Positions 25,201-53,721 are shown, counted from the stretch's first letter. The stretch: DNA of 64,000 nt from Proteromonas lacertae (GCA_002245135.1 NGBS01000315.1:62001-126000); one strand, 5' to 3'. Made by a program: numbers and translations. The notes: generated by a model not told the origin, from the letters alone.

Positions 25201-25218
25201 AGAAACTGACAAATAATT

Positions 25219-25325: not shown

Positions 25326-25880
25326 AAAGATTTGCAATCCAATTATTTCCTCATTTTTTTATCTATATAAATTAAATTATTATCATACTTCAGTATTATA
25401 CACTTATATTCACCATTAAACATCATTTACACATTAATTTCACAAAATTACTTTTTATATTTAAGCCGTTTCTTTTATCAATTTTCAGTTTTTTCTCTTT
25501 AAATCATCACTAAGCATAGATAATGATATAATAACATGAATAGATTGATATATTTTTTATTTTCTTTTAATATAACATTATCAATATGATTTAAAATGTT
25601 TATAAGAAATAATAAAAGAGAGAGTGATATATAAGAAAAAAGAGTGAAAAATTAATCAGAATCGTTCATATCTACAATAAAGCACCGCATCCCATCAGAA
25701 CTGCGAAGTTAAGATTGTACGAGCTATGATAGTAGTACAGTGGGGGACTCTGTGCGAAGTCATAGTAACGATTCTTTTTATTCTTTTTGTTTATTTCTTT
25801 TTTCTTTCTTTTTATTATGATGTAGAACAGGTATAGAAACAATAAAATAACATAAACAAATTGAATTAAAGTCAATCGTA
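25325..25880 (+). repeat. Dispersed copy of the 5S rDNA unit with flanks
   Basis: Aligns by eye with about 51845-52400, including the upstream spacer and downstream T-rich flank. Confidence 0.85.
25658..25776 (+). rRNA. 5S rRNA
   Basis: About 119 nt. Helix I ends AGAATCGTT/AACGATTCT, conserved AAAGCACCGCATCCCATCAGAACTGCGAAGTTAAG and TAGTAC..GTGGGGGAC, and an oligo-T Pol III terminator. Confidence 0.93.
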
Positions 25881-26067
25881 AAATAATCGTAAACTTATTA
25901 ACGATTCTTAATTATTTGTATTAAACTCCTATTCAACATACTTCTTTCATTTAATATAAATAATATAGCGAAATAATCCAAGCAACTGTAATTTTACAAA
26001 ATAAAATACATATATTAGTAAAATATGAGTGATAGTTATAGTAGAAAAAAAATTAAAAAGAGATTGA

Positions 26068-26840: not shown

Positions 26841-29800
26841 ATGGAAATATCAAGTCGTGTAATGAATGTAGTAGATTACAGTAAGATAAATGATATATCA
26901 ACACTTGAATTGAAGTATAAGAATGGTAGACGTTTTTATTTTTGTGAGAAGCCGTTTCTATTAGTCCGAGATTGCTTCATTCGTATTTACTATGAGATGA
27001 AAAATATTATCAAGAGTCATAGTGCTTCTAAACATCAAAAATGTTTTTTGGTTTATGGTAATGAAAAAATAGGTAAATCAACGTTTTGCTATTTTCTGTC
27101 ACATTGTTTCAATAAAGATAATAATTTTAAGGATTATAATATAGTTACAATTAGTACAATTGATAAAACAACTAATTATTATTTTCGAGAAGCTTATGGT
27201 GTAGTATATGAAGATATCATCGAATTACCGAATTTAAACACAAAAACAATAATAATCAGCGATAATGTTCCCATTAAGGAAGATGATTACAGTAATTGTG
27301 AGATAGTCATTATGGTTTCTTCACCCAAAGCCGAGAAATACAAAGTTATGAGTAATAAAAGAGCTCCAGTACAATTCTATTTACTACCTCTCACACCAGA
27401 AGAAGCTGATTGCTCTGATAATTTGTTAAGTGAAAAGAATTATACAATTAGTACATTTAATTCAGATAAAGATCGTTTAAAATCATATATACCACCATCA
27501 TACAATGAAGATTTTTATATATATGATACTGATAGAGTTGATAAAGTAGCTGATAGATTAAAGTTTAAATCAGAGAAAATGGAAAAAGAAATTTTAATAA
27601 CATGCTTTAATAGTAAAGTAAAATTTGCAAAGTTATATGATTTATTTGAGGATGAAGGAGATGGTTTTATGTTTGAGAGAATGATTCACATTATTATAAG
27701 AAATAAGTTGATTGATGAAAGTAGTATAATATATATTGAAGGAGATTTAGCTTATCATAATAAAATGGCAGCTTTTAGTAACTATCTCAGAGGAGATAAA
27801 ATGTATTATTATATAAATCAAGATAATCAACAATCAAATGTACAAGCATTATATGCTGATTTTAGTGAAATTCATAATTTCCCAGCAATAGATGGCTGTA
27901 TTATCACTAAATCGAGTGTTACATCTGTTCAAATGACAATTTCAGCTAATCATTCTATTAATGATACTGTAATTGTATTTCTGAATGTATATATATAATA
28001 TTATAATTGATTAGATGATATACGATCGTCATAAGAAGGAGATGATAAAGTATATATTAAATCCTCCTACAGATAAGCCACCTCCAAAAGACTTTGATCG
28101 AGAAACTTCAATGTATGAACTTGGTTATATACCAATTAATTATAAAGAAGATATAATATTCAAAATGGATAAGCGTAAAAGAATCCTATGTGAAAGTTAC
28201 GTATATTATATTCTATTACTATTATTTTTTATAGTTTTTAATCAATGAAATTAGCTGTAGGAATGACATTGACAATAGTCTGATTGAAATATATAGTAAT
28301 GTTAGAAAAGAAGAATTCTTGAAAGTTATGGATAGTGATAAACAAAAGTTTGATGCATTAGAGAGTGAATTAAAAATTGAAGGTGAATATAAATTTGATA
28401 ATCAATCACAAATGTTAACAGAACAATTAGATAAATTCATCGAACATATAAAGAAATTAAAAACAGAAATAGATAATATGAAATCTGTAAAACGAACAAC
28501 TGTACACATCAAAAATCAAAAACAGAAGGATATTTCCAAACCAATTAAAGCATATAAATTGAAAGTTTTATTACTTATGTTTAATAATCTAGTAGATAGA
28601 TTACCTAATTCAGTAAAGCCAAATAATATAAATAAAACAATATTAATTATGGAAAATGAAGTGGATAAAATGTTTATTGAAGAATTAAATGATATACAAA
28701 ATGAACCAGATAAATCAAATATAATAATAGAATTACAAATGCAATCAGAAGTATTTATAAAACAACTGCAAGGTTTACTTGATGAATTACATTACAGTGA
28801 ATCAGTTGATCAATTGAAAAATATAATTGATTTGTTCAAAATAAAAATACATGATTCATCAGATAGATTGACTAATTTAAATAATCAAATTGCTGAATTT
28901 AAAGATGATGTAGAAAAATTAAAAAATACATGTAACGAAATACAATCATTGAAGAGTGATATATACACAATTTATTATATACTCCAATCATATTTAAAGT
29001 TTAAACTAGAGAAAGATCTTCAAACATTGAAATCTTATTTAAACACAAAAGAAACAGATGATAACAATGGTAATGATGGTGGTGATGATAGTGATGATGA
29101 TGATAATGATGATGATGATGATGATGAAATATATGATGGTGATGTAATTCAATCATTTCAATATCAACTTCAATTGTTGAGTATATTTGATCTTGAAGAA
29201 GCGAATGAATTAGTGAAAAATAAATTAAATTCTCAAATAAAATTACAGTTATTACATAATCTGAATGACTATTTCTTCGATGTAATATACAATTGTTTAA
29301 AAGATGCAGAGAAAGATGATATGGATCGAGAAATTATTAAGGTATATTTTATTATATTTTATTATTATTATAGTTAATTAAAGATGAATTAGAATCAACA
29401 AGTAAATTAGAAGATATTGAAAATGAATTAAACAAATGTAATCCGCAATTTAAAATAATAATTGTTGCATATGAACATAATGTAGTTACTCATCCACTTG
29501 AAGTTGGTCATGCTGGTTTTGGGCAGTATGGAGTAGATATTAAAGATGAAATGATAAAAGAAATGAAAAAGAATTATAAATGGGATATCAAATCTGAAGT
29601 AAAAGTAATTGTAAAAGATAATGGAAAGAACATTATACCAGAAGATATAATCATTTCTATAAAATCAAAAAGACTTAGAGTCAGTGTTTTAAAAATAACC
29701 AAAAAAGAATTGTTTGATATTTTAACAAGTATAACTACCACTCCTCCTGAAATGAAAAGATATAATGATAGTACAACATTAAAATACACACCAACAGTTT

Positions 29801-32800
29801 ATCCAAGTTTACTTATTCAAGAACCATTTAAAAAGAGAATTAAGAATGAAAAAGATATTAGAATTTTAGTTAATGAATTTAAAGATATTACCATAAAACC
29901 GAATAGTAATGACAGTTTAAAACAAATTATAGATCAATACAAAAGTATTATAGATGATATAAGTAAATCTGATAATGAATTGGAGTTGAATGAAGAGAAT
30001 AAAATGACAATAAACGATATTGAAAAAGTGTGTAAGAGAATAGATGAAAGTATAGTACTGAATGAAATGATGGATAAAGTAAAACATTTGAAAGACTTTA
30101 TTGATACTGCTAAAGAGTTAATAGATAAGTTATTATTATCTGAATTAAAGTTTCCTTTTGATAAAAATGAGCTATATACCTCACTTTCTGCTTCTAATCA
30201 AGATTATTATAAACAGTTAAAATCAAAATTGACTATTAATAGACAGAATCAAGAAATTATTTTATCAACATTATATGTTAAATCTGCTAAAGAGATTATT
30301 TATAATCGTTTAACAAAATTACCTGTTAAAGCTAATGAGAAAGATATAGAAAATATATTAAATGAATTGAGATGTAGTATTAGTGAAGATGATATGGATA
30401 ATTTATTGTCTGAATTACATATTAATACTGAAGAATGCTTAAATGATTTATTAAATACATTGTCTGTTTCATCAGCTAAACATGATATAAAGAAGTTATT
30501 ATCTGAAATGAAAATTAATGTTAATTTAGATGATCTTGATAAATTATTTTCTGATTCAATTGAATATTCTGAAGAGAATAAAGATAAAATAATATCAACT
30601 ATACTTATTAGTAAAGCATATGAGAATATAAAGAAGTTATTAAAAGATATACATATTATTCATTATGGAAATTCTTTAAATGATTTATTATATAAATTAC
30701 TTATTAATGCAGGTAAAGATTATATAGAAAAGTTTTTCTTTGAAATATCTCATGATTGTAGTGAAGAATATGTTAATCAGTTGTTGCCTGAGTTGAAATT
30801 TATTTTTGATGAAGAATCTAAAGACATTTTTTTATCTAAATTAGAACCTCCTACAGAAAATGATGTTTATAATATTTTATTATCATTACCTAGTAATACT
30901 ACTAAAAAAGATATAGAAAAGTTTTTATCTGAATTACCTATTCCTATTAATGAAGATAATAAAGAAACTATAATATCTGAATTATATGATAATCTTGATA
31001 AAGATAAAAGAAAGTTGTCATCTCGATTATTTAAAGATGCTAATGAAAAATATAAATGTAAGTTAATAGCAGCATATAATTCAATAACAGAAATTAAAGG
31101 ACATATTAAAGATTATTGTTCAACTGTCACAAGTATATATATTAATATGTTATTTTAATAATAGAAACAAATTCTTTATGTCAAATATTTGAAAAACCAG
31201 TAATTATAAATAATGATGATAATACAATAAGCATTGACTGTGAAATATATCAATATCCTGAAAAGAGAGTGTATATTCGACAAGTTTATAAGGATATATG
31301 GAATGAATTAAAATATTTGATTTTATTTACTGAGTTGAGAAAATTAGTAGATGAAAAAAAAAAAAAAGTAGCAATGTAATAATTACAGTGTTAAATGAAT
31401 TGATTGAAGAGGATGGTAATAAAACAGCTAAGATCAGAGAATATGATATAAATGAACCAAATGATAAATTATTAAATGATGTGAAGAACAGAATTTTAAA
31501 ACCAATATTCTTAAAGGAAGGAGGAGATTTCTATATAAATAAATATTTCAGAGTTTTGTTAAGAGGAAATCCAGGATGTGGTAAAACCTCCTTCATAATA
31601 TTCTTCCTGAAGATGATTATTGAATTGAATAAAAGGATAGTAGAAAAGAATACTGTATTAAATAACAACAGTAATAAATTGACAATTACAGATTTAATTG
31701 AAACATCTATATTTAAAGGTGAAGAAGGTGTAGGAAATAAATATCGATTAATCGGGGAAAATGTTATTGATGTAAAAAAAGATGATAATCATTCTGAGAT
31801 AGCTATATCTGATACATATAACTTAGATCAAACTAGAGGAAAAGCTTCAATATTGTTCTATGTTACTTCACCAGATAATAAGAATTATAATCATTTTAAT
31901 GATTCACCTGATAATCATATTTATTATTATATGGATGTATTTAGTAATAATGAAATAGACGAATGGGGAAAAAAATCTTTATCTACTGAATTCTACAATT
32001 CAATTAAAAATAATGAATTTAATAGTAAATATGGAAATGTTCAAAGACACATTTATTATGCTGCAATATATGATGTATGTTATAATAAAGATTACTGGAA
32101 AGAGATATATTCAATAGGTATAAAAAGAATAATAGGTGGAATTGGATATTTGGAATTTCTAATGAAATATCTATTTAAACCTCCTACAGAAAACAATAAT
32201 GATGAAAATACATCCACAAATACTACTTCATTTGATAGTACATTATGCCATTATATGGTGAAATATTCATATCAAGATTTCCATCATATAAATAAGAATC
32301 AAATGGAGTTTATATCTAATTACGTGTATGATTATATATTCAATACTATTAAACACAAAGCTGATGAAATAGATATTAATAAAATACAAGAAATGTTCAA
32401 TAATATTTATGAGGAAAAAAATAATCAATTATTTCAATTATTATTTGAAGAACTAGTGTTTTACAACTGTTTATATAAAACAGATATATTTGAAAGTAGT
32501 GGTATTACATTAATAAAAATTAATCGCAACAAATTTGAAACTTTTAAAGAATTATTCAATGTTAATATATATTCTACTAAAACGGAAGAAGTATATTTAC
32601 TTCATTTAGCAACTCTGGAGAATAGAGAAATAATATATTTGATGAATAATTGTTTTATTCATATAATAAGTGATGAAGGGATAACACAATATAATTTTGC
32701 AGTTGAAGAATGTATTGCAGAATTGTCAATGAAAATGGGATGGTTAACTTTTTATTATATATTTGTTTCATCAAAAGGAAAAACTATTCAACAATCATCC

Positions 32801-33301
32801 ACTCAGAAAGAGCTTATATTACATTTCAATCGAAGGAATGATCCAATAACTAAACTACCTGGAATAGTGAGTATAAATCCATCAAATACTGAAACAGAGT
32901 TTATGTTCAATGGTTCAAGTATAGGAAAAGTTAATGGAAAGGTTGAAAAAATATTCTATAAATCAGAATTCCAACAAAAAGTGTATGGAGAAGTATTTGT
33001 TCTAAAAAATATACAACCATCATCCTCATCATTATCATCACCATCACCATCACCACAACCACAACCACAACGTAATACTGTTCTACACACAAAACAGAAT
33101 CTCACTACCAACAGCTACTATCAAGATAATAATGATAAAGAGCCACAATTAAAAAAACCTCGTATAGAATCATCATCATCACTACAACCACAACCTCCTC
33201 CACCATCACTACAGTCACTAGTTTCACAACCACCACCACCACTTAATATTGTAGGTGATACGTGTGGTATTGAGAGAAAATTTGGTAGTAATACTTGTTA
33301 G
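26841..33301 (+). CDS. Crinkler/RHS-like double-NTPase gene A (about 2110 aa): NTPase-A + REase + coiled-coil/repeat linker + NTPase-B
   Basis: Five ORFs join through introns 27987-28014, 28201-28234, 29342-29373 and 31133-31164, plus one +1 correction in the A14 run at 31354-31367. Motifs GNEKIGKS, NFPAIDG..VQMTIS..H and GNPGCGKT. Confidence 0.8.
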
Positions 33302-33423
33302 ATTAATATATTGAATTACAATAATTAACGACTTTATAAACATTCATAATCATAAACAAAAGTTTATTTGTTATATAAATAATAGAGAAAATAATAAATA
33401 TATAAGAAAATAATAAATTTGAA

Positions 33424-33978
33424 ATTTTCTTTTTACTTCCTCTATTATTTTGATTAAACACTTTGATTAGGAAAATAAGAATAACAAGATATTATTACAA
33501 CAGAAAATTCATAATTGAACTATTTTAATGATATTATTACAGAATTGTAAAAAAATACTTTCAACTATTTATTATTCTTCTTCTTTATTTACCTAATAAG
33601 TATGTTACAGCAATATTAATCTACACATATATTAAGAAGTACTAAAATATTTCTTAATAAAAAGAAATTTAAATTTTTGAACAAAAATATGGGGGTAAAA
33701 AATAAAGGAATTTGATATTATTTTTTAAATTTTCTCAACATCAAAATTGATTTATATTATAATATTTCATAATATACTTAGTTAATATAAGTAGTTTTAA
33801 TATATGTTATAATATGATATATGCTACTCTATTGTCTGATATCGCCTCATTTAACATAAATCATATATATAACATATGGTATGTAAAGTATACGTAGTAT
33901 ATATTATAAATATAGTATTAGTTTAAAAGGAAAGTTTATAACTCCTTTATCACGCAAATTTCTTTATCGCGCGCGACA
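33424..33978. repeat. Left arm of a long imperfect inverted repeat (pairs with 41804-42335)
   Basis: 33424-33552 is the reverse complement of about 42208-42335, and 33870-33978 of about 41804-41910; the middle part is diverged. Confidence 0.8.
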
Positions 33979-34310
33979 GGTTCTTCAATCACAACAGATG
34001 AACTTGTTCTTTGGTTAACTGGTGTAACATATCCTGGTTGAGCTGTTGTAGTAGATGTTGTTGAAGCAGTTGTAGTTGCTGGACCAGAATGTGGTGGCAT
34101 TGTTCCTCCATAAATAGGATATGGTGGTGGTAATGGATAATACATTGGTGGTGGAGGTGTTGGAGGTACATAATAAGGCTGGAACCAAGGATTGAAATAA
34201 GTTGATGGCATCATGGGTGGATTACCTGGAGCTGTACCTTGTGGAGGCTGTTGTTGAGGTGGATTACTGTATCCATAAGGATAGTAACCATAAGGATATC
34301 CTGGATACAT
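33936..34310 (-). CDS. Pro/Tyr/Gln-rich low-complexity hypothetical protein
   Basis: 124-aa ATG-started ORF, locally GC-rich; no recognisable domain; its stop lies in the inverted-repeat arm. Confidence 0.45.
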   Translation of the reverse strand: MYPGYPYGYYPYGYSNPPQQQPPQGTAPGNPPMMPSTYFNPWFQPYYVPPTPPPPMYYPLPPPYPIYGGTMPPHSGPATTTASTTSTTTAQPGYVTPVNQRTSSSVVIEEPVARDKEICVIKEL

Positions 34311-34364
34311 AATAAAACCTTAAAATTCTTAGAACTAAAAATAGATTAGATATATACTTATTAA

Positions 34365-34790
34365 TTGGATCAAGTGTACAGACACACTAAAGAATGGGTA
34401 AGTAGATTTGAAGAGATAGCAGCACGCATTGAGAAAGATGGTACACAATTTATCAGTTTAGTCAAAATTGGTTTCTTACAGGACTTATCAGATTATAATT
34501 TGGTACTTTTTAAAGCATTTATCGAGGATTGTATTGAGAAGATCAAAGATTTGGTAAAAGATTTAGGAGCAGTCACTAGATACAAAGATGAGTTCCAGGC
34601 TTATGCTAAAAGACTAATGGTACGAAACAAATTATGCTGGATTAGAGATCGTATAAGAATGTGGTGGGGAATCTTGAAGATGTTCTCTAAAATTTGGATA
34701 ATGGATGAGATACAGATACTGGGAGAAGATTTAATAAGAAAAGACCAGGAAATGGTAGCGCAAAATAGAATAAAGATTCTAATTCCTTAA
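34365..34790 (+). CDS. Hypothetical helical protein (start uncertain)
   Basis: 141-codon open frame with protein-like composition in AT-rich DNA; TTG start only; no motif recognised. Confidence 0.3.
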   Translation: MDQVYRHTKEWVSRFEEIAARIEKDGTQFISLVKIGFLQDLSDYNLVLFKAFIEDCIEKIKDLVKDLGAVTRYKDEFQAYAKRLMVRNKLCWIRDRIRMWWGILKMFSKIWIMDEIQILGEDLIRKDQEMVAQNRIKILIP

Positions 34791-34847
34791 ATAATTCTAT
34801 CAGTGAATTGTGTTGTTTTGAGTTTATTATTATATTATATATATATA

Positions 34848-35415
34848 AAGGGAAAGCTAAATTAAATTCAAAATCATAAACAATAGGGAAAGCAAAAACG
34901 ATAGGGAAAGCTAAAACGAGTCTAGTTGGGTATATGTGAAAGAATGAGTATAATTGAGTAAATATGTAACGGTTGGCCAACGGTTACATCTGAGTAGTGT
35001 AACCGACGCGTAACCGATAGCGTAACCGTTTGCAACGGTTATAATTACGTTACGTCCAACCGTTATTGAATAAATTAAGATTATGCAAAATAGAATTGAG
35101 GCTTGATCAAACAAGTTATAAAAAAAGATGCGTTACTCGTGGTCTGTAGCCCTTACTACATATTATTATGGTATAAGTAGGTTAAATATTATTCATAGAT
35201 ATAGCGAATATGGTTTAAATGGATTTTTGATAGATATTATTTAAGATATACAAAAATGACTTGAGTATAGTATGTAATACTTAAACTCAAAAATATATGA
35301 CAAAAAAGGACGTGTTAAACTACGCATCCTGGGACAAAGAGGACATGTGTAATCAACGAGAAATTTTCGTGTATGAAAAAGACAAGGGACAGGACAAATA
35401 AAAAAGGACATCCCG
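34848..35415. promoter_or_regulatory. Non-coding cluster of short repeated motifs and palindromes
   Basis: AGGGAAAGC x3, about 8 AACSG/CSGTT motifs including two hairpins (34964-34989 and 35023-35041), and GGAC(A) x6. Confidence 0.5.
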
Positions 35416-35609
35416 TTGCCAATATGTAATTCAGAGAAATGTGAATGAAAAACCTATTTTATACCAAAACGTTGAGTAAATTAGGACTAGCGATAGAATA
35501 GTGTAATAGAGTGATATTAGTGAAGAAATATTTAAAACCCTCATAAATTATAATTGAAGTTATAATAAATTTGATATGTGATAAGTAAATTAAACCATTA
35601 CAAATGCTT

Positions 35610-38600
35610 TTATTCTTTTTCTATATATAGATCTAATTGAATATCACTGTCATATACTAAATTTTTAAGTATTGATTTACAATATGTAATTTCTGCATTA
35701 TCGATTGTTGTATCACCTATATAATGTGAAACGGTTGCTTTTGATATAGAAGGTGATGGTTTAGGTGATCTATCATTCGATACTGCAATATAATACATTC
35801 TTTTAAAACTCATTTTTTCTTTCAAACCACATATACATTCTTTTATTTGATCATCACAATCCAATACTTCTCGTTGATCATTTATTACATGTATAAAGCA
35901 GTTATTCAATAAGTAAATCATTTCTCTATTCTTTAGTGTTGCTAAATGAACTAAACAGCGTTTATTGTTATTCATACAATAGATATCTCCACCAAACATC
36001 TTTTTAAATATATCTAATTCAGTATCACTAATATCTTCAACTAATGGAGTTTTCTCTAATTTCAATTTATCACCATGATACAAGCAGTTATACCATACTA
36101 ACTCTTTGAATAAATATAACATAAACTCATTTTTCACATTATTATTATATAAGTAAGCAAATTGTTTCTGTATATTCTTAACATCATCTTCTCCAGCTTT
36201 ATGCTTCACACAATCATAAATATAATCGAATACTTCATCTGATATAAATTCCATTTCATGTTCATTAATTCTATCATAATATTTGATTTCATTCACTTTG
36301 TCTTTATATGGAATAGAATACTTCACTATATAATGACATAAGGTAAAAGCTTCTCTTTCTGATATTTTTTCATCTTTACCACATGGAAATACATATGTCT
36401 TAAGAAATTCCATATAGCCAAGTTTACCTACTATTCTTTTTATACCTTTTGAATATATTTTATCCCAATAATCTTTATCATAATATTTCTTATATTTTGC
36501 AGCATAATAGATATGTCTTGGTACATTTCCATATCTACTATTAAATCCTTTTGCTACTTCTTTCAAATCATCGCATAAACAATATTTTTCCCATTCTTCA
36601 ATTTCTTTTTTACTAAAAACATCCATAAAATAGTAAATTCGATGAGATTTTATTGTACATTTTGTAAAATTTGTATAATTTTTATAATCTGGTGAAGTGA
36701 CATATAAATAAATATGACCTTTACAATCTGTATCACTAATATCATATGAGTCACTAATCACAATATCACAAAATCTTTTTCTTTTACCTTCATCATATTC
36801 TACTTTCTTACCATTTAAATTGTATTGATCACAACTTTGTTCTTTAGCTTTAACTACACATACATTAATTTCATTACCTTTAAATTTTTCATTTAATTCT
36901 ATAATTTTATTTAATAAATAGATAACAAACGAAGTTTTCCCACAACCTGGATTTCCTCTCAATAAAATTCGTAAATCACCATTATATAAATCTTTGCTTT
37001 TAGTATCTTTTTCTTTTTCATCTGTAACATTTGTAAAACCTAATTCATTACAAATATTTTTGAGACTTTCTACTTTGTTTTCTTCTATATTCTTTATTTT
37101 GAAAGTTAAAATATGTCTTATCAATTCATCACATATTTTTGTATAAACATCTCTAACATAAACTACTTTATTAGGATATTGATATATATCACATTTTATT
37201 TCTATTGTTTTATTCTCCGCATTGTATACTGGACTTAAATCTCCAAATACTTTACATAAAGAGTTTGTAACTATTATTTATATAATTAATATATATATAT
37301 ACTTGGACGACCTATGCTATAAGCTTCTAGACTCTGATTAATAATCTTTAACATACATTTTGCATAATCTATTTCAAGTTTATTTAATTCATCTACATCT
37401 TTATTCATTTCTTTATCTTTTGTTTTATCTGTTCCGATTTCTTTATTTTTCTTATTTTCAAAATATTTTTCAAATAATTCAACTCTACTTTTCAAGTTAG
37501 TTACAGTTAATTTTGAATAATCTAATACGAAATTATTGTCTAGATTTCTCCATTCTTCAATAATTCTATGAGCTTCATTTTCAATATCATTGTATTGTTC
37601 TTTCATCTCTTTATTCTTTTTATTTTCAATAATCTGTTTATTTATTATCTTTTCACATATTGTATAATCATGTTTTATCTCTTCTTCTTCAACTTCATAA
37701 TCTACTATATCTACTGATGGATTTGTACATCCTGTAACTTCTAAATCTATGGATTTATTATCATCATAAATTAAATGTAATGATTCTACATTCTTTTTTT
37801 CTACCAAATAGTCAGTTAATTCATAAGAATTCATGTTAAATGTAGAAAATCTTAATCTTTTAGTCTTTATTGACATGATTAATTTTTGTGATTTATTCTT
37901 TTTTTCATTTTCTGTACCTGTTGATTTCATTTCATCCCATTTGTAAGTTTTCTTCATTTCTTCGACTATTTTATCTTGAAATATTCCATAATGCCCAAAA
38001 TCAGTATCATCATCTTCAAGTGATGATGTTACTTTATTGTGATTGTATGCAACAAATACAATATTGAATATTGGATTACATCTATCTAATTGATTAATAA
38101 TAACTTCATTATTAATATCTGAATTTATTTCTTCTTTAATTGACTATAATAACAATAATAATACTACAATATACATTAATTATTTCATTTTTCATAGCTC
38201 TTTTATCTTCATCATTTTTTTATCATAGTATATTACATCAATCAAATAATCTTCTAAGTCATGCAATATTTGTTTATTTTTTATAACATCTATTACCATT
38301 TTATTCATCTCTTCAAGTTCTAATATTTCAAATTGTTCATCCACATTTTGTAATTCATTTTCTAATTTCTCAGTTTCATCAGTCAATATACTTTTTGATA
38401 AATCACTATCATTGAATTTTCTTTTTTTTTGATTATTCGAAGTATTTTCTAATTCTCTTTTTCTTTTTTCTAATCCTTTCTTTTCCTTTTTCAATTCACA
38501 TAATTCAATACTATCATTAATTAAGTGTAAAAAGGTTTTCTTTTCACTATCATCTAAATATCTATCTTTAAATTTACCATATATTCCAATTATGTCATTA

Positions 38601-38879
38601 TTCTCATCATCTTTATTTTCAGGTTTTCTGTGATAAAGTTCATTTATCAAAAACTATATAATTAAATATTAATATATATTAATATTATACATAACCTTCA
38701 CAGATTATTCTCTTTACTCTATTCATACTATCTATTATCTCTTTCTTTTTATTCTTTGGGATATATCCATTATCATATAGCGCATTTGCAAGAATATCTT
38801 TATCGTTTTCATTATTCATATTTAGTCTTTTCAAATTATCGATAATATGGGATTTATGATAGCTATATAACATCTATAC

Positions 38880-38913
<34 letters not shown>

Positions 38914-40386
38914 TACATTTAGAAAGGCAATCACAGTATTCTTAGTTGGATGATTATTAGATATTGTCATTTGAACTCCACTTATACTGTATTTGTTAAT
39001 AATACATCCATCAATTGCTGGAAAATTAATGATTCTGCCAAAATCAACATATATACCATCAAAAATTACCCCATCTTTTATTAAACCACTGATATTATCA
39101 CCTTCTCTATTATCATATGATATTTTCCTTTCTGTAATTACACAATCTATAATTCTTTTATATTCCTTTGTCACATCTCCATCTGTTATTTTACAGTCTG
39201 TTAATATTCCATCTTCTATTACAGTTTTACCATTTTTATTTCTAGTTATACCACTTTCAAGAGTTACATTTTTAATCCTATATTTCTCACAATGATCAAG
39301 ATAATTAATGAATTTATCCATGTCCATATAAGTTAATCTATATTCAGGTAAATTAAATGGCAATTTTTTACCTTTATCTTTACTATTTGTCTTATAACTA
39401 GTATAACTACTATCTTCGAATATAATGTGACACATTCTTTCGAATATCAATGGATCTTTATTATTCAACATTTTACCTTCAAATACTTCATATAATAGTT
39501 TATAATCCGCAGCATCTAAAAAATAATGACTCAATATGTATTGTTTCACTTCTTTTGATATATACCTCAATCTGTCAGGTATTACATTAAATTGATCTGT
39601 ATCATATACAAATAACTCTTCTACATAAGAAGGTGGAATAAATAATGGTAATTTCTTTGCAGATTTCTTATAATTATCAATATAATCACATAAGTCTTTC
39701 AATGAATAATCGATATTTAAGTTACCTCCATATACAAGTGCATCATTTAATTTTTTCTTTTTCTCATCTTCATTCAATGTTTTGTTTTGATCAATTATAA
39801 TCTTTAATTCATCTTCACTGAACTGCGGTATATAATATTGAATGGGACATCTCTTATTTGCCATTATTTTATATTTGTCTGCTTTTGGAGAACTGAGCAT
39901 GATTATTACATTATCATCACTGAAATCATCTACACGAATCTGTTCATTATCGCTTATAATGATAGTTTTTCCTTTTAAATCGGGTATTTTTTTATTTCTT
40001 GTAAGGAATTCATGAGTATTGGCCAATCTATAATGCTTTTTTGTATCATTTACACCATATACTACTATGTTATATCCATCAAAGTCATCATCATTATTAA
40101 GACAATACGCCAAAAAGCAGCACAATGTAGACTTACCCAATTTGCTATTACCGTAGACTAAAAAACAATTCTGACGCTTCTCGTCTACACCTCTACTTCT
40201 TTTTACTTCATCTGTAATACCATTATAAATATCTACATAACAACCTCTTATTAAGATAGTATAACAATCAGAAGGATTATTAGAAGAGTAATAATTTAAA
40301 TAATACTCTTCTCCTTTAGTATTACAGTTTTTCTCCAACTTTAGGTTATTAATATCATGATACCTTATCACATAATTAAAACTCAT
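35610..40386 (-). CDS. Crinkler/RHS-like double-NTPase gene B (about 1540 aa)
   Basis: Introns 38874-38916, 38654-38690, 38144-38174 and 37271-37302 sit at the same positions as in gene A; one +1 correction at the T7 run 38215-38221. Motifs GNSKLGKS, NFPAIDG..VQMTIS..H, GNPGCGKT and YGNVPRH. Confidence 0.8.
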
Positions 40387-40794
40387 CAAAATAAAAGAAA
40401 TGCTATTACTATACTCGTCGTTTGATAATTATAGTTATTGAAAAGTATAGTTATAAATATGTCAATGACATGTAATATACATATCACATATCAAATGGAC
40501 TTAATTCTTAGCAATGACTTTATACAATCAATTTCATTTTATCCTTCTGAAGTGCTACTTTAGTGAATGATGTGAATTTTGTTATCTGTGATGCTTGAAA
40601 TATATACCAATAATCTCTCTGTATAAGAAAAAATACAATTAGTTATATATGAATATATAAAGAGCCTATGATAATTGTTTAAATGACGAAAATTTTAAAT
40701 AATGACAAACAAAAATCAAACTAAACGATATTTCATGAATTGTACAAAGAAATAATGATAATATATATAAAATTTGTTATTGAAATAATTACTT

Positions 40795-41344
40795 TCTTCA
40801 ATTACTTCTCACTAAAGTCTCAAAGTCTTCATCACTTTCATACATTGAGCTTAACAAATAATTCTAAAAATTCATTCATACTTATTAATCCAGGGTTTCA
40901 TTGTATATCGAAAATGATTAATAAACTGATTTAATGCTTGATCTTGTGCAATTTTAACTTCTATTATAGTTTGCCATTGTTTTCACAATCTAACATGTGG
41001 AATATCTCCTTTACTACATTATATCGATTTTCTTGCATTGGAAGAACTAACGCTTCAATAAATTCATTCAACGATATTGTACCATCAGCTTCTCGCTTAA
41101 ATCCATTCATCAATATATCTACTTCATATCTCTCAAATTTCATTCCTACGTCTATTAATGCGAATTGTATGTGATCCAATTGTAATCTGTCTCTGTGATA
41201 TTTATCTATTACTTCTAATGCACGACACAAGCATCTACCACCTCTATCACTTCTATCGTAAGCTGCTTTTCTTATCATCTTCAACATTGTTTCAGGATCC
41301 ATCGGAATATATTCTTTTACACGTTTTGCTGGTTTTTCCGCCAC
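40795..41344 (-). pseudogene. Calcyphosin-like EF-hand gene relic
   Basis: RGGRCLCRALEVID..DGTISLNEFIEALVLPMQENRYNVVKEIFHMLD matches the calcyphosin layout. A broken C-terminal piece (GLISMNEFLE..SSMYESDEDFETLVRS) follows after stops and frameshifts; no ATG at the ORF start. Confidence 0.65.
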
Positions 41345-41803
41345 ACGGGGAACAACAATGATAATGGTAATACTAAAGTGGATTTTGCTTTTGTTGAAGG
41401 AATCAAAAATGTTGTTATCGAAGATTTAATAAGAAATGAGTTGAAAGAGTGGGTAATGTGGTTAAAAAAAGCGATGAAAAATGTATGATGATATGGATAT
41501 AATTAATATTGACTAGCACTGCTAATAAAGTTCTTAAAAGATATATCATTCTAATACATTTCTTAAATATTATACTCAAAATATTATTTTATTAAATTAG
41601 ATTTCGATTATGATTAAACATAAATAATAACTACATAGAAAGATAGAGAAAAAAAAAACAAATCAATTGATATATTTATTATACATTCAAAATAACCCTA
41701 ATCCTAACCATAATACTTACAAAAATACAAGCGTTTCATGATTTGACTTGAGTCATTTTTTTATTTTTTTTTTTTAGTAATAAGATGGTGAATGTATGGT
41801 GTT

Positions 41804-42335
41804 GTCCCGCGATAAAGAAATCTGCGCGATAAAGGAGTTATAAACTTTCCTTTTAAACTATATTATAGTTATTATATATACTACATATCCTTTACATACC
41901 ATATGTTATTAAGCTACATCTGCGATATATATTTTTTTGAACTTTATCCCAACATATTGAAACAATTATAATTCTATTTTTAATTTTTTTGCTTCAATCA
42001 CTACTAGAGTTAAAAATACATTAGTTTAAACAATTAAATCACACATATTTAGATGTTAAGACACTTAAAAACGAAAAAATAAAAAATCTATTCAAGCCTC
42101 ATTCAAGCTTGTTTTTTCGAAATAAATTTTAAGCAGGTAAATGCAATAAGTAGGTATTCCTTTTCTATTTAAAACCTTTATCCCGATGTCTACTATTGTT
42201 ATAAGCTTTTAAAATTCTGTAATATTATCATTAGAACAGTTGATTTATGAATTTTCTGTTGTAATAATATCTTGTTATTCTTATTTTCCTATTCAAAGTG
42301 TTTAATCAAATTATAGAGGAAGTAAAAAAGAAAAT
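41804..42335. repeat. Right arm of the long imperfect inverted repeat
   Basis: Reverse complement of the two blocks in 33424-33978, in nested order. Confidence 0.8.
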
Positions 42336-43729
42336 CTATTTAGAAAGGAATATTGATCTATTTAGAAGTATGTAAAAATCCAACATCAATGTATACATAT
42401 CAAAGATTATTGATTCAAGTGATTAATATACTAATATATTATATGGTAACGGAATAACAATGGCGTTTATAAGGGATTATGATAAACATCAGGAAAAGAA
42501 ACAAATTGTACAAACTCACACTGTGTATTCCTAGTATATCCTTGTAGAATAAGATCTTATTTAAGTAATGTTGGTTTAAAATCAATAGATCAATTTTAGA
42601 AATGTGATAGAGATATATTAAAAATAGTTTTTTTATTGTTTAGCTGCTTTAGGATATTTTTCAATAATTATATCTAACAGCAACATTATTTCTAATTTAT
42701 TCTATTTTATTGAAACAATTCAAACATTTCAAACAATTCTAGGAAATTAGCAAAAACAAATAGTCAGAATCAGAGATTATTAAGTGAATATTATTGTAGT
42801 AAAGAAGATTTTAAAGAAGCAAGTTTATTAAGCTGCATTTGTATATATATTTATGATATTTTTAAAACAATCTGTGGTATGAGAATTAGATGATTATTAT
42901 TAAACATTGGCTTGTCATCAATATAGATAATACATTGTATCAATCAATTGATTAATTGATCAATTGTATCAAGAATGGAGAGTTGGTTAAAGCAGAGATA
43001 GGTTATACTTGGTGTTATACAAGAATGTATCAAAGACTTAGTCATCCTTATCATCTATTGTATGTTGTTTGGGAAAACTCGGAGAAGTCAATTAGAGATT
43101 AAGGATTAATTTACAAAGACCACGTAGGAGGAATCTTGTAGGAACCATACCTAAATGTGACAATGGCACGTTGTGGCAGAGTCCCATTTATATACTATAT
43201 ATACAAGTGAAGCATACACTAATTAATCAACTAAATTTAGATAATGTCCAATTAATACCTTTTACAAATCATATTTATTAATTCAAATTTTTAATTTCAT
43301 TTTCTTTTTCTACCACATTGGATATATTAACTGTTTTCAATTCTCATATATACTATTTATTAGACTAATCTAAGATATTGTGGTAATTATTTCATTCTTT
43401 CTATTCTTTCAAATTGTTTATTTGGTGATGATGAAAGGTAGAGTATCATAACACCTAAACAAAAAAAATAACTGAAAATTTGTTAAAAAAAATAACTTTG
43501 TATTCTTTTCCTTCCATATTAACAATATCAAATGCACTCAGTATAATATTATTTAAATCAAGTAATATACATACAATTTCACTAAGTTTATCAAAATGCA
43601 ATAACTGAACATAACTCAATTTTTTTGATATTTATAAGTAAAGAAATATACTGAACATTTGAATTCTATTTTCTTCTTTTTCTTCTATCCCTAACTAGCT
43701 ATATCTAGTTGTTTATAATTGTAGGACAT

Positions 43730-46700
43730 ATGGATGTTGAAGTAGATACGATATTGAAGTGTGATTATGCTGGTGAACGAATTTATCGTGATGTAAGGTA
43801 TTTAAATAATCCTTTTTTTATTAAAAGAGAATGTTATACAAAAATTTACAATAAAATAAAGGAATATATGGCATTAAAACATGGAATCCAAAAGAATTTC
43901 CTAGTTTATGGTAATAGTGGTATAGGTAAAACATGTTTTTGCTTATATTTATGTAAAGAACTTCAGTATTTCAATGATGTTCAAGTAATATTCAGAAATT
44001 CTACTTACACATATTATTACAAAAGAGTAGGTGAGAATAGGTATAATGATGATGGAAATCTCCCAGAAAGACAGGTAAAAAACAATAATCAAAAATCAAT
44101 AATAATATGTGATAATATTCCAATTTCAGAAGATGAGTATAGTGAAGATGATGTGGTTATACTGGTTACTGGTATGAAGCTGAAAAAATATAAAGTAATG
44201 CGTAGCAAGAGAGCTCCAATTCAATTCTGCCTTTTACCTTTCAATAATATAGAAATTGAATTATATAAAGATTTTTTAGTAAATAGTAATACAATGATAA
44301 TTGATCCTAATTATAAAGAAAAATATGGAGGAATTCCTGTTTTTTTTGACATCAATCTTGATGAAATAATTGATGAATATAAAATGATTGATGTTTATGG
44401 TGGTATTGCTGCTAAATATAATGAATATATATATATTTATGATGTTAAGAATGAGTTTGAAATTCCTCAGAAATTGAAATTTATCTCAAATTATATTGAA
44501 GAAATGGTATCAAAGAAAGTAATTATAGATGAAAACAATTATAATATTTATCTTGCTCTTTTAACAGAAAAAATCGAAGGAAAAAATGAGAAAATAGGTT
44601 CAGAAGGTGGATGGTATTATCAACATTTGGTATTATATCTGAAATCTTGTAATATTGAATCAAAAATAACTGAAGAATCACAATTGGATGGAATAGATAG
44701 AAGAAATTTACCATTATTCATTAATTGTTCATTTCAATCTAATTTTCCATGTGTCGATGCAATAGAGATTAATAGAAAGTGTATAAATGGAATACAAGTA
44801 ACTGTATCTGACCAACATAGCATTAAAGAATCTGTAAGTATTTTATTCAATGTGATATTTAAAGAAACATATAGAAAGAGAAAAGAAATCATCATAGCAA
44901 TGTTTCAGAATAGAGAAATAGATGAACTTTCTGAAACTCTTTATTATTTAGGAGTATATTAATTATCTAGTTTTTTATATTTATATAGTATACACCATCT
45001 TCAATGATAGATCAAGCATTAAATATCCATATGAATAAAGTAAATGAATATATACAAACTGAGTCAGAATTAAGATTTGGATTTAAAATACTTTTTTTAT
45101 TTGAATTATTCACAGATGCTAGTACAAATATTGATAATTGTGTAATAAGAATTATCAAATCAATAACAATAGAAAATATGAATAAAATCTTTGATAAAGA
45201 TGAATTAGTAGATATTATCAAAGATATTACAGTTGTAGCTGTTGAATTGAAAATTATCAATACTTACTATAATAAAGAAGAATTACAAGCATTAAAACAG
45301 ATTAAAGCAAAGTGGGAAGATCCTGGAGTTAATAAAGTTAATATTACCCCAAAAGATAAAAAAAAAATATCCAAAGAAATATTAGAATTTGAAGATAATA
45401 AAACAAAATGGGAAGAATATCAAAAAATAATAAACAGAAAACCATTTGAAAATTATGAGAATAATAATGTTAAAATTATAATAAAAAAGAAAGTAGAGAA
45501 ATTAATATTTGATGCAAAAGATTATGCTTATGACTGTTTTATTCAGAATGAAATAGATAATGATATACATAAAAAAGGAAGGTCAAATATAAAAGGAAGA
45601 AATATAATGAAAAAGAATAAGGATATTATTACAAAAATAATAAAAGAAGAAGTTCAAAAGGTGGAAAGTGATGATGAGTTAATTAATAAATACCTTAATG
45701 AAGATTATAATCCCAGATTTGTAATTACAATGATAAGTCATAAATATGATGTGGCAATGAATATAGAAGATAGTTTTGAATTTAGTCAATATGGTGAAAA
45801 TTTAAAAGGAAAAATGTCAAAATACATAGAATATATTTATCCATCATATAATTCATTTGAAGATGTAATAAAAGTGAGAATAATGACAAACAAATTCAAA
45901 AGAGTGGAACAAGCTAATGAAATTATATCATATATCGAATTAGAGAGAAGAAGAATAAACGATCTGACATTAAATGTTGGTAATATATATTATGAAGATG
46001 ATAAGAAGAAAAAACTTGAATTAAATGAAGAAGAGTTAGGTATAACGAATGATTTGATAGAAGAATTAAAAAGTAATCAAAAAATGAAAAGGTTTTTGGA
46101 TTCTAATTTTATATATTTAAATCCATCAAATATGATATGTAGATCATATAAAGAAGGTTTAGATAAGTTAAATGTGATTTTAAGTAATTATATTTCTCCA
46201 ACAACATTTTATACAAAAGATGGACAAAGAAGAAACTATTGTGATTGTAGAAAGGATAATACAAAACCAATTCTAAATCCATATTTATTGATTGAATTAA
46301 AAAATGAAAATAATATAAATATTACCATTAGAGATGAATTGGATTCTGATAATTTTGCATATGATAATTTGTGTGGCTTAATTTTAAAAGCAAAAGATTA
46401 TAAAGATGAAGTTTATAATGTTAAAGAAATTTTAACTTGTCCATATTGTTATGAGAATAATATAACGATAATTCCAAGAGAATGTGAATATATAAATGAT
46501 TTTGACAATAGAAAATCATTCTATTGTTATTATTGTAAAATGAATGTATCATGCATACCTAAATTAGATGCTAAAGGTAAAACCGAATTGAGATATGTAG
46601 AAGGTGGTATTAATATATTATATAATAATGAACTGAAAGAAAGTTATAAATACCATGATGATGCTCCTACTCCTCCTCCTCACAATGCTACATCATCTTT

Positions 46701-49246
46701 TTCCTCTACTGACGATGAAATTGAAACTGAAGATAGTAAAAAAGAAGATGCTAATGATTATTTTTCTGTTCCATTTTCATACTCTACTGATACAGCAATG
46801 GAAAATAAAGATAATAATAATAATGCAATTACTGATTCTCTTAAAAGAAAGTGGAAAGGAACAGATGTGGAGAAGGGGACAAAGAAAAGTAAGTATGATA
46901 ATAATAGATACGAAGCTTTTGCTCCTCTTCCTCCTTCTGATAATGCTTCTAGTAAAATGGAAAGTGAAAATGATGAAGATGATTATGAAAAGTATTTTTC
47001 TAGGAGTAACTCTGCTAGAGTCTATCCTCCAAATAAGAAAATTAAAACTACTTACAATTTTTTTCAAACATTACAACTAAAACCACCACCATTCAAGAGA
47101 AATAGTATATAAATTTATATATAATAAAATAGGTTTTGATTATTTGCAATATATATTTAGTAGTCAACAACCCCCAAAATTTATGTATAATGAAACGTTG
47201 ATAAAGCTTGATGAGAGTATAAAAATATTTCAATATCCAATGAAAAAGATATTAGTAAGAGATTATTATCCACTCTTTTGGAAAAGAATAGAATATAATA
47301 TAATTCTTAATTATTTTAATGTTTTTAATAATGATGAAGAAAAATTAAAAGAATTATTGAATTATTTAGATGTAGATGTTCATCCTTTAGATAATATTAA
47401 AAATATTGTTGAAAGAGAGAAAGAAAGATTAAAAAGAATTATCAAATTTGAACCTACTAATATTAATGTTAAAAGTTACTATTTATTAAGAGGTCAACCA
47501 GGATGTGGAAAATCCACCTTTTTAATTTATTTTATTTTAAAATTTATCCAAATGAAGGAAAAATTAGGTATTAATTTAGGTTTGACATATTTCAAAAGTA
47601 CAAAGAAAGAAGATGGAAATCTGAATTATCCTGCTAGATATTGTTTGAATGGATGTAATTTAAAAGAAGGTGGAAAAACTGAAAATATAGTAATATGTGA
47701 TTCATATAATATTGATTATGAAACCGTATCAGAGGGTAGGATAATTATTAATGTCAGTTCTCCAGATAATAAAAACTATTCTTATATGAAAGAATTTGAA
47801 CATCATAATAAAGTCTATTTCTATTTAGATATTTGTAATAAAAAAGAGATAGATATATGGAAAGAAAATTGTTTACCTGCTGAATTAGGAAATGCAATTG
47901 ATAATGATCTTATTTCTTTATACAATCGAGTACCAAGACATTTATATTTTGCAGCAATATATAAAGCATATTATATAACAGAAGATAAACCAAATGGAAG
48001 AAATTATTGGGATGAAATATATACAAATTGTATTAAAACAACTGTGAATACCCTTGGTTATTATGATTTTATAAAGAAATATCTTTTTCCATGTGAAAGA
48101 GATAATGAAACAAAAAACTTGGAAAATGATATTGTGGTTGATATAGAGAAAGAAAAATTTATTGTTGATAGATTAGATACAGATTTATCACATTATGTTG
48201 TAAAATACAAAGTATTAGATTATGATTCAATTGATAGACTTCAATTAGAATATATATCTGATGAAGTATTTAAATATCTATATTTATGTACAAGTCACAG
48301 ATACACTGAAAAAGAATTTAAAAATATAATGGATTATTTTATATCTGTAATAAGAACAAATGAAAATCATCCACTATATAAACTATTATTCAGAGAATTG
48401 GTGTGGTATTCAATTACGAATAATGTAGAGTGGGATAATAAAGTCATAAAGTTTAATAATATTCAGATGAATGTATTAGATAAATATTTCCGAAATACTA
48501 CAACATCAATAGGATGTGGAGAAGGTTATTATATTGGTCAATTTGATATTGGTAAAAATTATGATATTTGTTATATTGTTAATAATGTTGTTGTACTTCC
48601 ATTTTCGCATGATGTAAATAAAATAATGAATGATAAAGAATTTATAAAGTATTTTGAGGATTATTCAAAAGATATTAATTGGCATATATATCCAGTAATA
48701 ATTAAAATTGAAGATATACAGAATGGTAAGCAGTATGTAAATGATAATGAGTATGTTAAATTAACTGTACAACTGCCTAAACAATATGTAATAGATCAAT
48801 CATTTAACTTTCTTTACACTATTGAAGGGTTTAAAGAATGGATTGATGCTTATGAAAGAAGTGTTATATACAATATTATAGATCAAAATAATGATTTAAG
48901 ACAAATTATTTATTGTTTGTTAAGTTTATATTGTACAGAATCATGTGAATCGTTTTGTTTGGCTCATTATCAATCTAATAAAGAGAAATTCGTGGATGAA
49001 ATTACCCATAATTCATACGATATGAATGTATTACCAGCTTATATATTGGTTATAATTTATAAAGAAGAAGGTGATTATCTAGAAAGATATGTAAATTTTA
49101 AAGGTAAGTTGCAATATAGTCTATTTGGATATATTAAAAATACTGAAAAAGGTTATGTAATTATAAATAATTTTGGTAAAGAAGTAAAACAGATTAAAGA
49201 TGAAAAAATATATATGCTATTATATAAGTATGAAGAATCAAACTGA
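43730..49246 (+). CDS. Crinkler/RHS-like double-NTPase gene C (about 1817 aa), apparently intact
   Basis: Three ORFs join in frame through introns 44954-44988 and 47105-47132 with no correction. Motifs GNSGIGKT, YGGIP, NFPCVDA..IQVTVS..H, CPYC/CYYC in the linker, GQPGCGKS and YNRVPRH. An additional upstream exon is possible. Confidence 0.85.
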
Positions 49247-49398: not shown

Positions 49399-49750
49399 AT
49401 CTAATTTAGTAAGAACAGTTGCATTTATTACAGCTCCAAAGAATTATCGAAATACAATAATCTCAATTACATCTAATATCTTAAAATCTGATGCTTTTGA
49501 AAATGATTTACATTCTTCTTCACCTGATATAGCTTATTCCTCTGTAATTGTCAGACAAACTGATATTTATGAATAACCACAAACCAGATCAGCTGCTAGT
49601 AAGATTGGAGAAGCAATTGGCATTTCTTTTGGTGTAGTTATTGGTACTTTGATTATAATTAGTTTAGTTGGTTATACAATAATCAACAGAAGAGAACTTG
49701 TTGTAAAGACATCTCACCAAGAAAGATCTTCATTAAAAGCAACTAATTAA
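49399..49750 (+). pseudogene. Duplicated 3' fragment (TM region) of the Ig-like membrane protein gene
   Basis: Reverse complement of 52560-52911, with the same in-frame TAA after RQTDIYE. Confidence 0.8.
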
Positions 49751-50005
49751 AAGTTGTTTGGTTATTGGACTATCTGGCTATAAATTTGCCATTGAGAGAA
49801 ATTATGTGTGTTGAATTAGGTTTAATATTAATCATGAGAGTAAAATTAAGATAAATCTTTCTATGAATTGATATTAACCTTCTTTATAATTAATCTTTAC
49901 TAATTAATTTTCGATTGATTTTAATTCAATTTGTTTATGTTATTTTATTGTTTCTATACCTGTTCTGCATCATAATAAAAGGAAAGAAAAAAGAAAAAGA
50001 ATAAA

Positions 50006-50124
50006 AAGAATCGTTACTATGACTTCGCACAGAGTCCCCCACTGTACTACTATCATAGCTCGTACAATCTTAACTTCGCAGTTCTGATGGGATGCGGTGC
50101 TTTATTGTAGATATGAACGATTCT
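50006..50124 (-). rRNA. 5S rRNA
   Basis: Reverse complement of 25658-25776. Confidence 0.93.
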
Positions 50125-52185
50125 GATTAATTTTTCACTCATTTTTCTGATATATCACTCTCTCTTTTATTATTTCTTATAAACAATTAATATCATACTA
50201 ATAATGTTATAATAAAAGGAGATATACTATATATCAATCTATTCATGTTATTATATTATTATCTATGCTTAATGATGATTTAAAGAGAAAAAATGAAAAA
50301 TGATGAAAGAAACGGCTAAATATTTATAAATATAAAACTATTTTTGTGAAATTGATGTGTAAATGATATATTATGGTGAATATAAGTGTATGATGCTGAA
50401 GTATGATAATAATTGTATTTATATAGATAAAATAGATGAGGAAAGAGACAGATTTCAAATCTATTTGAAACTTGAACAATATGATGGTGTTATAAAGATG
50501 TAGAAAATAGTATAAATTTAAAAATGATGTGATTGAGCATAATTGTGATGATTTGTATAAATTGTGAATTTGTGTAAGATAAAATGAGTTTAAAGAAATA
50601 AAGATGTGATATTTGATTAATTTGAATGTTATTATTCCGATTATTTATATGATGATGTAAGATAAGTGAATATAGAAAAAGTGATTAACAATAGTCTTGA
50701 TTTGAAAGTTTCAAATATCTTAATATCTAAGAAGATGTAGTAGATTATTTGAGGATGATATTATCTCTAGATTTGTATATATTGAAAAATAAAAGTTATT
50801 ATTTGATGAATTATTATTGTGATATTTTTATGTGAAATAGAAGTGTGATAATTTTGTATTTAAATGAAATACTCAATTGAAAGATTAATAGAAATGGTTA
50901 TTGTTAATATTATAATATGATTTTATGTTTTATGATGATGGTTAAAAAGGAGGAGAAAGAAGAATAGAATGAAAGAAGTAGTTGATATAAATAATCCTTA
51001 CAGAATTGCCATTGAAATTAGTTTGAATAATATTTAATATAAGTTATGTAAGTGATTAGTATATATATGGAAATTGGATTATGATTGGAATATTTTATAT
51101 TTATGATAGAGAATGATGAGAGAAAAGTTTTATTCATTATTATAATTTATTTATTTTATATTATTAATATTTTATGTGTGTTGTATATTTGTATAGAAAC
51201 AATTAATCTTTCATTATTCTTCTATTACAATATTTTTACATCTTACACACAAGAAAACAATACTAACAAATATACAATGAAGGTTTAATAGAGTTTTATT
51301 TAATTAATTGTTTAAAATATGTAATTCAATTATCTTCATACTATTTTTTTCTTCCTCCTCCTTTTTAACCATCATCATAAAACATAAAATCATATTATAA
51401 TATTAACAATAACCATTTCTATTAATCTTTCAATTGAGTATTTCATTTAAATACAAAATTATCACACTTCTATTTCACATAAAAATATCACAATAATAAT
51501 TCATCAAATAATAACTTTTATTTTTCAATATATACAAATCTAGAGATAATATCATCCTCAAATAATCTACTACATCTTCTTAGATATTAAGATATTTGAA
51601 ACTTTCAAATCAAGACTATTGTTAATCACTTTTTCTATATTCACTTATCTTACATCATCATATAAATAATCGGAATAATAACATTCAAATTAATCAAATA
51701 TCACATCTTTATTTCTTTAAACTCATTTTATCTTACACAAATTCACAATTTATACAAATCATCACAATTATGCTCAATCACATCATTTTTAAATTTAAAC
51801 TATTTTCTACATCTTTATAACACCATCAGGTTGTTCCATTCTGAAAAGGATGTGCAATCCAGTTATTTCCTCATTTATTTTATCTATATAAATACAATTA
51901 TTATCATACTTCAGCATCATACACTTATATTCACCATAATATATCATTTACACATCAATTTCACAAAAATAGTTTTATATTTATAAATATTTAGCCGTTT
52001 CTTTCATCATTTTTCATTTTTTCTCTTTAAATCATCATTAAGCATAGATAATAATATAATAACATGAATAGATTGATATATAGTATATTTCCTTTTATTA
52101 TAACATTATTAGTATGATATTAATTGTTTATAAGAAATAATAAAAGAGAGAGTGATATATCAGAAAAATGAGTGAAAAATTAATC

Positions 52186-53710: not shown

Positions 53711-53721
53711 TATTTACATAT

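Follow-up and report, generated by a model that had tools for sequence, protein, structure and literature searches.

The 64,000-nt stretch of Proteromonas lacertae DNA analysed here (GCA_002245135.1, NGBS01000315.1:62001-126000; the window) carries five copies, A to E, of a gene family within 31 kb and in mixed orientations, whose members appear to join two paralogous NTPase modules of the Crinkler/RHS (CR) type in one chain. Judged by their motifs, the modules have complementary losses: module A keeps the motif of a restriction endonuclease (REase), and module B keeps the canonical Walker A and a characteristic arginine, which would be a new observation on CR-type proteins. The explanation that we prefer, with slightly less than even confidence, is that these are headerless CR-type proteins in which two paralogous NTPase modules provide one ATP-gated DNA nuclease in the cell's own nucleus.

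Architecture of genes A, B and C

Gene C (43730..49246, + strand) is intact and encodes 1,817 aa, with module A in exon 1 and module B in exon 3; between its two canonical introns (44954-44988 and 47105-47132, +) lies a linker exon of 705 open codons. Gene A (26841..33301, +; ~2,100 aa) runs from module A in exon 1 (26841..27986, +; GNEKIGKS, IISDN and NFPAID..QMT..H) through a linker to module B in the last exon (31165..33301, +; GNPGCGKT, SPD and YGNVQRH, divided by a frame break) and a Pro/Ser-rich tail, with four introns (27987-28014, 28201-28234, 29342-29373 and 31133-31164, +). Gene B (35610..40386, - strand; ~1,545 aa) has the layout of gene A and four intron sites in common with it (38916-38874, 38690-38654, 38174-38144 and 37302-37271, -). 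The ten introns are AT-rich, 28-43 nt long and of GTAT...TAG form, and they lie where a first-pass annotation of the window had placed them; a strict version of this pattern has 8 sense and 0 antisense matches in the three genes, and shuffled sequence gave a mean of 2.8, with 8 reached in 1 of 200 shuffles. That annotation had claimed that intron removal joins 13 open reading frames into three genes, which is true only of gene C, open throughout; genes A and B keep frame breaks at A-runs. Its claim of four intron positions shared by A and B agrees with the four common contexts, after VFLN, CExY and EII[KN] and, in phase 1, ahead of TNSLC. Intron 2 of gene C is also in phase 1, at the site aligned with the A/B intron before TNSLC, so that all three genes have, as had been proposed, a phase-1 intron before the second NTPase.

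With a GC content of ~25%, the window has eukaryotic gene content, including housekeeping genes (acetyl-CoA carboxylase, PSMD3 and PLAA) and glycan-modifying genes. Because its housekeeping genes carry similar introns of 25-41 nt in GTAT...TAG form, the ten introns of genes A, B and C are ordinary introns of the host genome, and we rejected the idea that 'micro-introns' are a special feature of the family. In these traits the window resembles low-GC Blastocystis isolates, for which one study gives 21-23% GC and introns that exceed 30 nt and vary more in length (PMC12129017).

Near-identical glycosyltransferase copies at ~59160-60850 and ~61940-63630 differ by seven indels of 1-2 nt, all seven in A-runs, and frame breaks at A-runs are therefore to be expected from the assembly. 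Those in genes A and B are probably long-read errors at such runs, with true decay also possible. In gene A the last exon shifts frame at a 14-A run (31354-31367), where the in-phase GT..AG choices are A-rich and unlike the remaining introns; a 35/38-nt intron at 31334 was rejected as A-rich and lacking the GTAT...TAG form, gene B being intronless there. Gene B has in-frame stops in exon 3 just ahead of the shared intron (~38190-38225), with the break near an A-run at ~38220; an atypical 93-nt intron could alternatively skip them.

The linkers of the family are 600-1,000 aa long in chains of 1,250-2,100 aa, and their exons have the GC1>GC2>GC3 coding profile (GC content by codon position) seen in acetyl-CoA carboxylase. 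Between paralogue modules, nonsynonymous divergence (dN 0.42-0.59) is lower than synonymous divergence (dS 0.93-1.31), with distances near saturation. We consider it highly improbable that the two modules are separate adjacent genes, joined only through the splicing that was assumed: the gene B linker contains a stop as assembled, but the linker of gene C is a single open exon between canonical introns, linker and module B are just 28-32 nt apart, and three relatives described below (P0013, P0001 and P0014) are in frame across junctions. Paralogues are 25-46% identical and their linkers not alignable. A conserved block of ~150 aa, NPxFxI...F[GS][QH]YG...RLR, is shared by the linkers of gene A (29374..29820, +), gene B (37700-38143, -) and gene C (45670-46100, +); its end is faintly recognisable in P0001, and a PDB sequence search with it gave nothing useful. 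The gene C linker also has a CxxC pair absent from A and B, CPYC...CYYC (~46437-46535, +), possibly a zinc ribbon.

Family assignment

The NTPase-A, nuclease-like and NTPase-B motifs listed in the first-pass annotation are all present, and its assignment of the proteins to the Crinkler/RHS group was borne out. Among the nearest ESM Atlas clusters were CRN-family and RHS clusters for module A (0.98 and 0.93) and for module B (0.94 and 0.90), which we count as a single line of evidence. Among 1.84 billion representatives, a profile built from four module-A sequences matched 81 proteins at E≤0.001 and 9 of them at ≤1e-30, with matches extending over the entire NTPase-to-REase span; in a Pfam scan of 70 of the 81, two passed the Crinkler header cut-off, one passed that of RHSP and two were sub-threshold for RHSP. 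A CR hidden Markov model (HMM) was made from the 33 matches that cover both NTPase and REase, without the nearest A-B-C-type relatives. It listed all eight window modules (E 1e-15 to 1e-34) but neither three linker exons nor two control proteins. By these profile matches both modules are Crinkler/RHS-type P-loop NTPases.

Other searches were less productive. Window modules found only weak P-loop matches in PDB sequence searches, word-seeded protein searches with module A (near lengths and longer) found no match, and a scan of metagenome, viral and prokaryote genome contigs and phages found no relatives. Predicted helices between NTPase and REase, where CR proteins have an HTH or helical domain, have mostly low local confidence (pLDDT <50), and complex predictions for modules A and B of gene C, made without alignments, scored 0.47, 0.01 and 0.01 in separate runs.

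Complementary motif losses

Motifs were counted in 15 A-type, 7 B-type, 2 single-module and 30 outside CR rows. Canonical Walker A, GxPGxGK[ST], occurs in 1/15 A-type, 7/7 B-type, 2/2 single-module and 29/30 outside rows; the G-x-P-R-type arginine, which in module B is probably an AAA+ sensor-2, occurs in 0/15, 7/7, 2/2 and 27/30, respectively. Since a looser Walker A, G....GK[ST], remains in 13 of the 15 A-type rows, module A may yet bind nucleotide. The REase motif D..QxT..H is present in module A of genes A, B and C, as it is in all 11 listed A-B-C-type relatives, with K replacing Q in one; D343, Q356, T358 and H363 are conserved over 33 sequences. We presume from the literature that its fuller form, NFPxhD..QhT..H, belongs to the REase superfamily. 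Against an REase HMM, A types reach 20-33 bits, and no B-type tail exceeds 0.7 bits. For an REase fold in module A there is support from motif and profile, though none from the predicted structure, and we regard the A tail as a probable nuclease on the former two.

Conservation of these residues bears on a rival explanation, that the proteins are domesticated nuclear housekeeping factors which, like RHS, bind chromatin or RNA polymerase II in transcription or replication, their nuclease motif being vestigial or used only in DNA binding. RHS clusters stand among the Atlas matches, the window proteins have nuclear localisation signal (NLS)-like patches and lack a secretion signal, intron conservation points to host genes that are old and expressed, and, in the available text of one study, Trypanosoma brucei RHS proteins serve in mRNA export and in transcription by Pol II (PMC6393297). 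However, A-type relatives retain the catalytic D, Q, T and H, and identities of 25-46%, unalignable linkers and local duplication with decay favour an arms race, although RHS are variable too. We think the housekeeping explanation unlikely.

Relatives and evolution

The 17 close relatives examined (P0001, P0002, P0004-P0015, P0017, P0018 and P0020) are all Logan gene calls without a name. Ten are A-type; at the first A/B intron site nine of these read VY and one VL, and nine end within ~25 residues of it, presumably because an intron-ignoring gene caller meets the same intron. The tenth, P0014, continues into an exon-2 homologue. P0001 passes from linker to module B, its frame running at the shared site through sequence that resembles an intron; its match to the linker is weak (E 0.001). 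It and P0004 each come from a 4,788-nt contig, apparently the same one, in which the spare 1,107 nt agrees with the spacing in gene B. P0018 and P0020 are single-module proteins that match both A and B profiles and retain the REase motif. Among the 81 profile matches, two separate full modules were seen in P0013 alone: a D-type module B followed by a D-type module A, in a single unbroken frame of 1,041 aa, which is the best evidence for the existence of two-module chains.

By hhalign (E 1.5e-9) the two modules are homologous, so that the two different NTPases of the first-pass annotation are indeed two modules per chain but are paralogues, not unrelated domains. In a 54-row tree the A types group with a support of 95 and the B types plus single-module forms with 98, together split from outside CR proteins with 97. 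As the two modules form sister clades, the tandem would have arisen by duplication. D-type and A-B-C-type forms separate inside both the A and the B clade (supports 85-92), which suggests that the pairing of modules is older than the change in their order. Taken together, the family is a lineage-restricted architectural variant of the known CR family, with introns that relatives in other public assemblies apparently share.

Genes D and E and the neighbourhood of the cluster

The family extends beyond the three genes (26841-49246) to which it was first confined, and its module order is not fixed as A-B. Gene D (21186..~25200, +) has at its N-terminus a beta-rich domain of ~170 aa (21186-21700, +), then module B with a coiled-coil insert, an intron of 34 nt (23823-23856, +), poly-Q, module A and an REase remnant with the motif TFPDID (24995-25051, +); this B-A order, found also in P0013, is the reverse of that in genes A, B and C. 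Several frame breaks follow from ~24100 onward. The N-terminal domain recalls, to our eye, an SPRY-like sandwich, and had no match in Pfam or PDB sequence searches. Gene E (18697..~20560, +) is a truncated duplicate of gene D module B that a 115-nt repeat interrupts; remnants with 87.5% identity to gene B come after it. The 115-nt repeat occurs upstream of E (18220-18334) and at the ends of E (20201-20315) and D (25211-25325), and D and E have upstream sequence in common (18473-18732 / 20929-21182).

Copies of this kind might instead be selfish or mobile elements, Medea-like or transposon-derived NTPase+REase units, that spread by duplication and now decay in part, with A, B, D and E true pseudogenes. 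Consistent with this are the five copies in mixed orientation within 31 kb, the truncated and chimaeric gene E, the several breaks in the tail of D, and the position of the A-B-C block between inverted 5S units; CR units have also been tied to transposons and to Tribolium Medea1 in the sections available of two papers (PMC11342252, PMC5289972). On the other side, no transposase was found in the window, nor any terminal repeats at the borders of single genes, and breaks at A-runs are what the assembly would be expected to produce. Intron positions are conserved among relatives less than 50% identical, and such conservation at this divergence is unusual for active transposons. We consider this explanation unlikely.

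The 5S units are three copies of ~550 nt with an identical 5S gene in each. A dispersed 5S rRNA unit (25354..25887, +) lies left of the A-B-C block, as part of its surroundings rather than demonstrably of the block itself, and an inverted unit (49903..50432, -; 5S identical, flanks ~89%) lies to its right; the third is at 51875-52407 (+). The latter two lie in a 1.57-kb inverted repeat (49399-50964 / 51346-52911; 98%, 381-nt spacer), which adjoins fragments of a cysteine-rich Ig-like surface protein (52935-53753, -; weak He_PIG match). Two pieces 3' of gene A (33424-33971) recur as an inverted copy between B and C (41808-42335, ~92%), and a small proline-rich gene (33936-34319, -) has its 3' end in one of them; this repeat is the trace of a local inverted duplication. 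A GC-richer patch at 34365-35080 holds a 141-codon open reading frame without a Pfam match, followed by clustered GTAACC/GGTTAC near-palindromes. Farther off, an Acyl_transf_3 + SGNH, GT10 and FUT8-like gene cluster (54952-60498, -) is possibly a surface-glycan modification locus, its Acyl_transf_3 + SGNH genes being labelled O-acyltransferase-like on our own assumption; the FUT8-like and GT10 fucosyltransferase genes form an inverted duplicate (59161-60854 vs 61937-63631).

Proposed mechanism

In the nuclear ATP-gated nuclease explanation, a single NTPase+REase ancestor resembling P0018 or P0020 would have duplicated in this lineage and its copies divided the tasks, module B binding and hydrolysing ATP as a switch or motor and module A acting as the DNA cutter. 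What triggers the protein, or what it targets, would depend on the fast-changing linker and the N-terminal additions, unless the linker serves as a spacer. Such roles have precedent in the accessible part of one paper, where the REase of CR proteins is thought to be the toxic part and the NTPase its regulator, and where some non-secreted CR forms are proposed to attack intracellular invasive DNA (PMC5289972).

The window proteins have no CRN header, as previously noted, and a hydropathy check found neither signal peptide nor membrane segment in them (maximum KD19 near the N-terminus ≤0.82). Because header and signal are absent and NLS-like patches present, the site of action would be the nucleus of the producer cell, and the likeliest use would be intragenomic conflict, either defence against invading DNA or a restrained selfish element, rather than that of an exported effector. 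An exported toxin directed, like oomycete CRNs, at gut microbes, competitors or host cells has in its favour the catalytic core shared with CRN C-termini (PMC5289972). Of the selfish-element, toxin and defence uses first suggested it has the least support, and we consider it very unlikely for chains of this length, lacking the Crinkler/Ubl header, LxLFLAK, signal peptide and membrane segment and with no neighbouring immunity gene recognised.

Several observations weigh against the preferred explanation. The tree is a quick search in which one long outside branch falls within the A/B group; three clean groups (97, 98 and 97) emerged in a second version from which seven long branches were removed, and shared AT-rich composition may help A and B to group. 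The outside reference set was fetched with the module-A profile, which makes the REase match of module A partly circular. For the B tail, hhalign gave no REase signal (13.2, below a shuffled maximum of 14.4; 12.9 against single-module forms), so that position and predicted topology (helix, three strands, helix, strand, in a low-confidence model) are what suggest that it may be a dead nuclease. The module A model (pLDDT 42.6) matches AAA+ folds such as RFC, ORC and Avs4 in Foldseek via its NTPase only, and that of module B (pLDDT 44.2) has no Foldseek match at E≤0.001. Of the four long genes, all but gene C have broken frames in the assembly, and trypanosome RHS proteins are given housekeeping nuclear roles in the text available of PMC6393297.

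A bolder version, which we find doubtful, is that this is a protist-specific family serving immunity in the nucleus, in which an ATPase-nuclease unit of transposon origin was doubled into a single-chain switch (B, the active ATPase) plus cutter (A, the active nuclease), in both orders, with variable sensors, for which the linker, the zinc-ribbon-like CxxC pair and the beta-rich N-terminal domain are candidates. If true, logic like that of NLR and Avs proteins would have been invented independently in eukaryotes from Crinkler/RHS parts. For the ATP-gated nuclease explanation more generally, the role of headerless CR proteins in their own cells and the control of nuclease by NTPase are at issue, and the literature, as far as accessible, only proposes regulation. 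With functions seemingly split between paralogous modules, and with gene C intact, the question becomes testable with two point mutants.

Comparison with known systems

The accessible parts of the literature searched describe neither a double-NTPase CR family nor CR genes in Blastocystis, although the defining work of Zhang et al. 2016 may already list tandem modules; the words 'Crinkler', 'NTPase' and 'nuclease' do not occur in the main text of PMC12129017. With our finding, the range of CR proteins would come to include a probable gut-protist lineage on which the searched papers, in the sections available, are silent. The family is nearly invisible in databases, the 17 close relatives examined all being Logan gene calls, most of them truncated at intron 1.

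STAND-nuclease defence proteins such as Avs4 and SAMD9 use NTPase-gated nuclease logic, and module A has weak fold matches to 8dgf and 9zjs. The window proteins differ from STAND receptors in that no TPR, LRR or WD sensor passed the cut-off in Pfam or PADLOC searches; nSTAND3 was below the Pfam cut-off in them, and PADLOC gave one weak match for 8 proteins (IetA, E 0.009, no passing stretch). Tribolium Medea1 (CR-NTPase8 + CR-REase7) and Wolbachia CifB are described in the available text of one study as CR-derived nuclease units in genetic conflict (PMC11342252), and CifB demonstrates that tandem REase units exist. Medea1 is a single NTPase+REase unit, and CifB has repeated REases without NTPases, both unlike the window genes; no CifA-like partner was recognised at the window locus.

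Trypanosome RHS proteins (PF07999, PF20445) have a related P-loop module (Atlas 0.93 and 0.90; P0060 passes RHSP) and form, as here, a multigene family with pseudogenes, nuclear in trypanosomes. No RHSP or RHS_N match at E≤10 was found in 10 window pieces, only relatives matching, and none of the five window copies has a retroelement insertion after the P-loop, the RHS hot spot; the window genes differ in their double module and introns. Oomycete and fungal CRN effectors (PF20147 header) share a homologous C-terminal core, P0050 and P0057 aligning to positions 38-415 of 421 in the profile, whereas the window proteins lack the Ubl/LxLFLAK header, HVLVxxP and a secretion signal.

The closest likeness is to the CR NTPase+REase proteins as a whole, whose RxC[YF], Walker A, hhhhD, SSP, YK, hPxW/F, G-x-P-R and NFPxhD..QhT..H motifs all occur in the retrieved relatives. 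Fast multigene radiation, as reported for them in the accessible parts of several papers (PMC5289972, PMC11342252, PMC6131194, PMC11064341), is likewise seen here. In contrast to those proteins, the window genes encode chains that pair two modules, in one order or the other, whose motif losses are complementary; they have no header, and a linker of 600-1,000 aa separates the modules.

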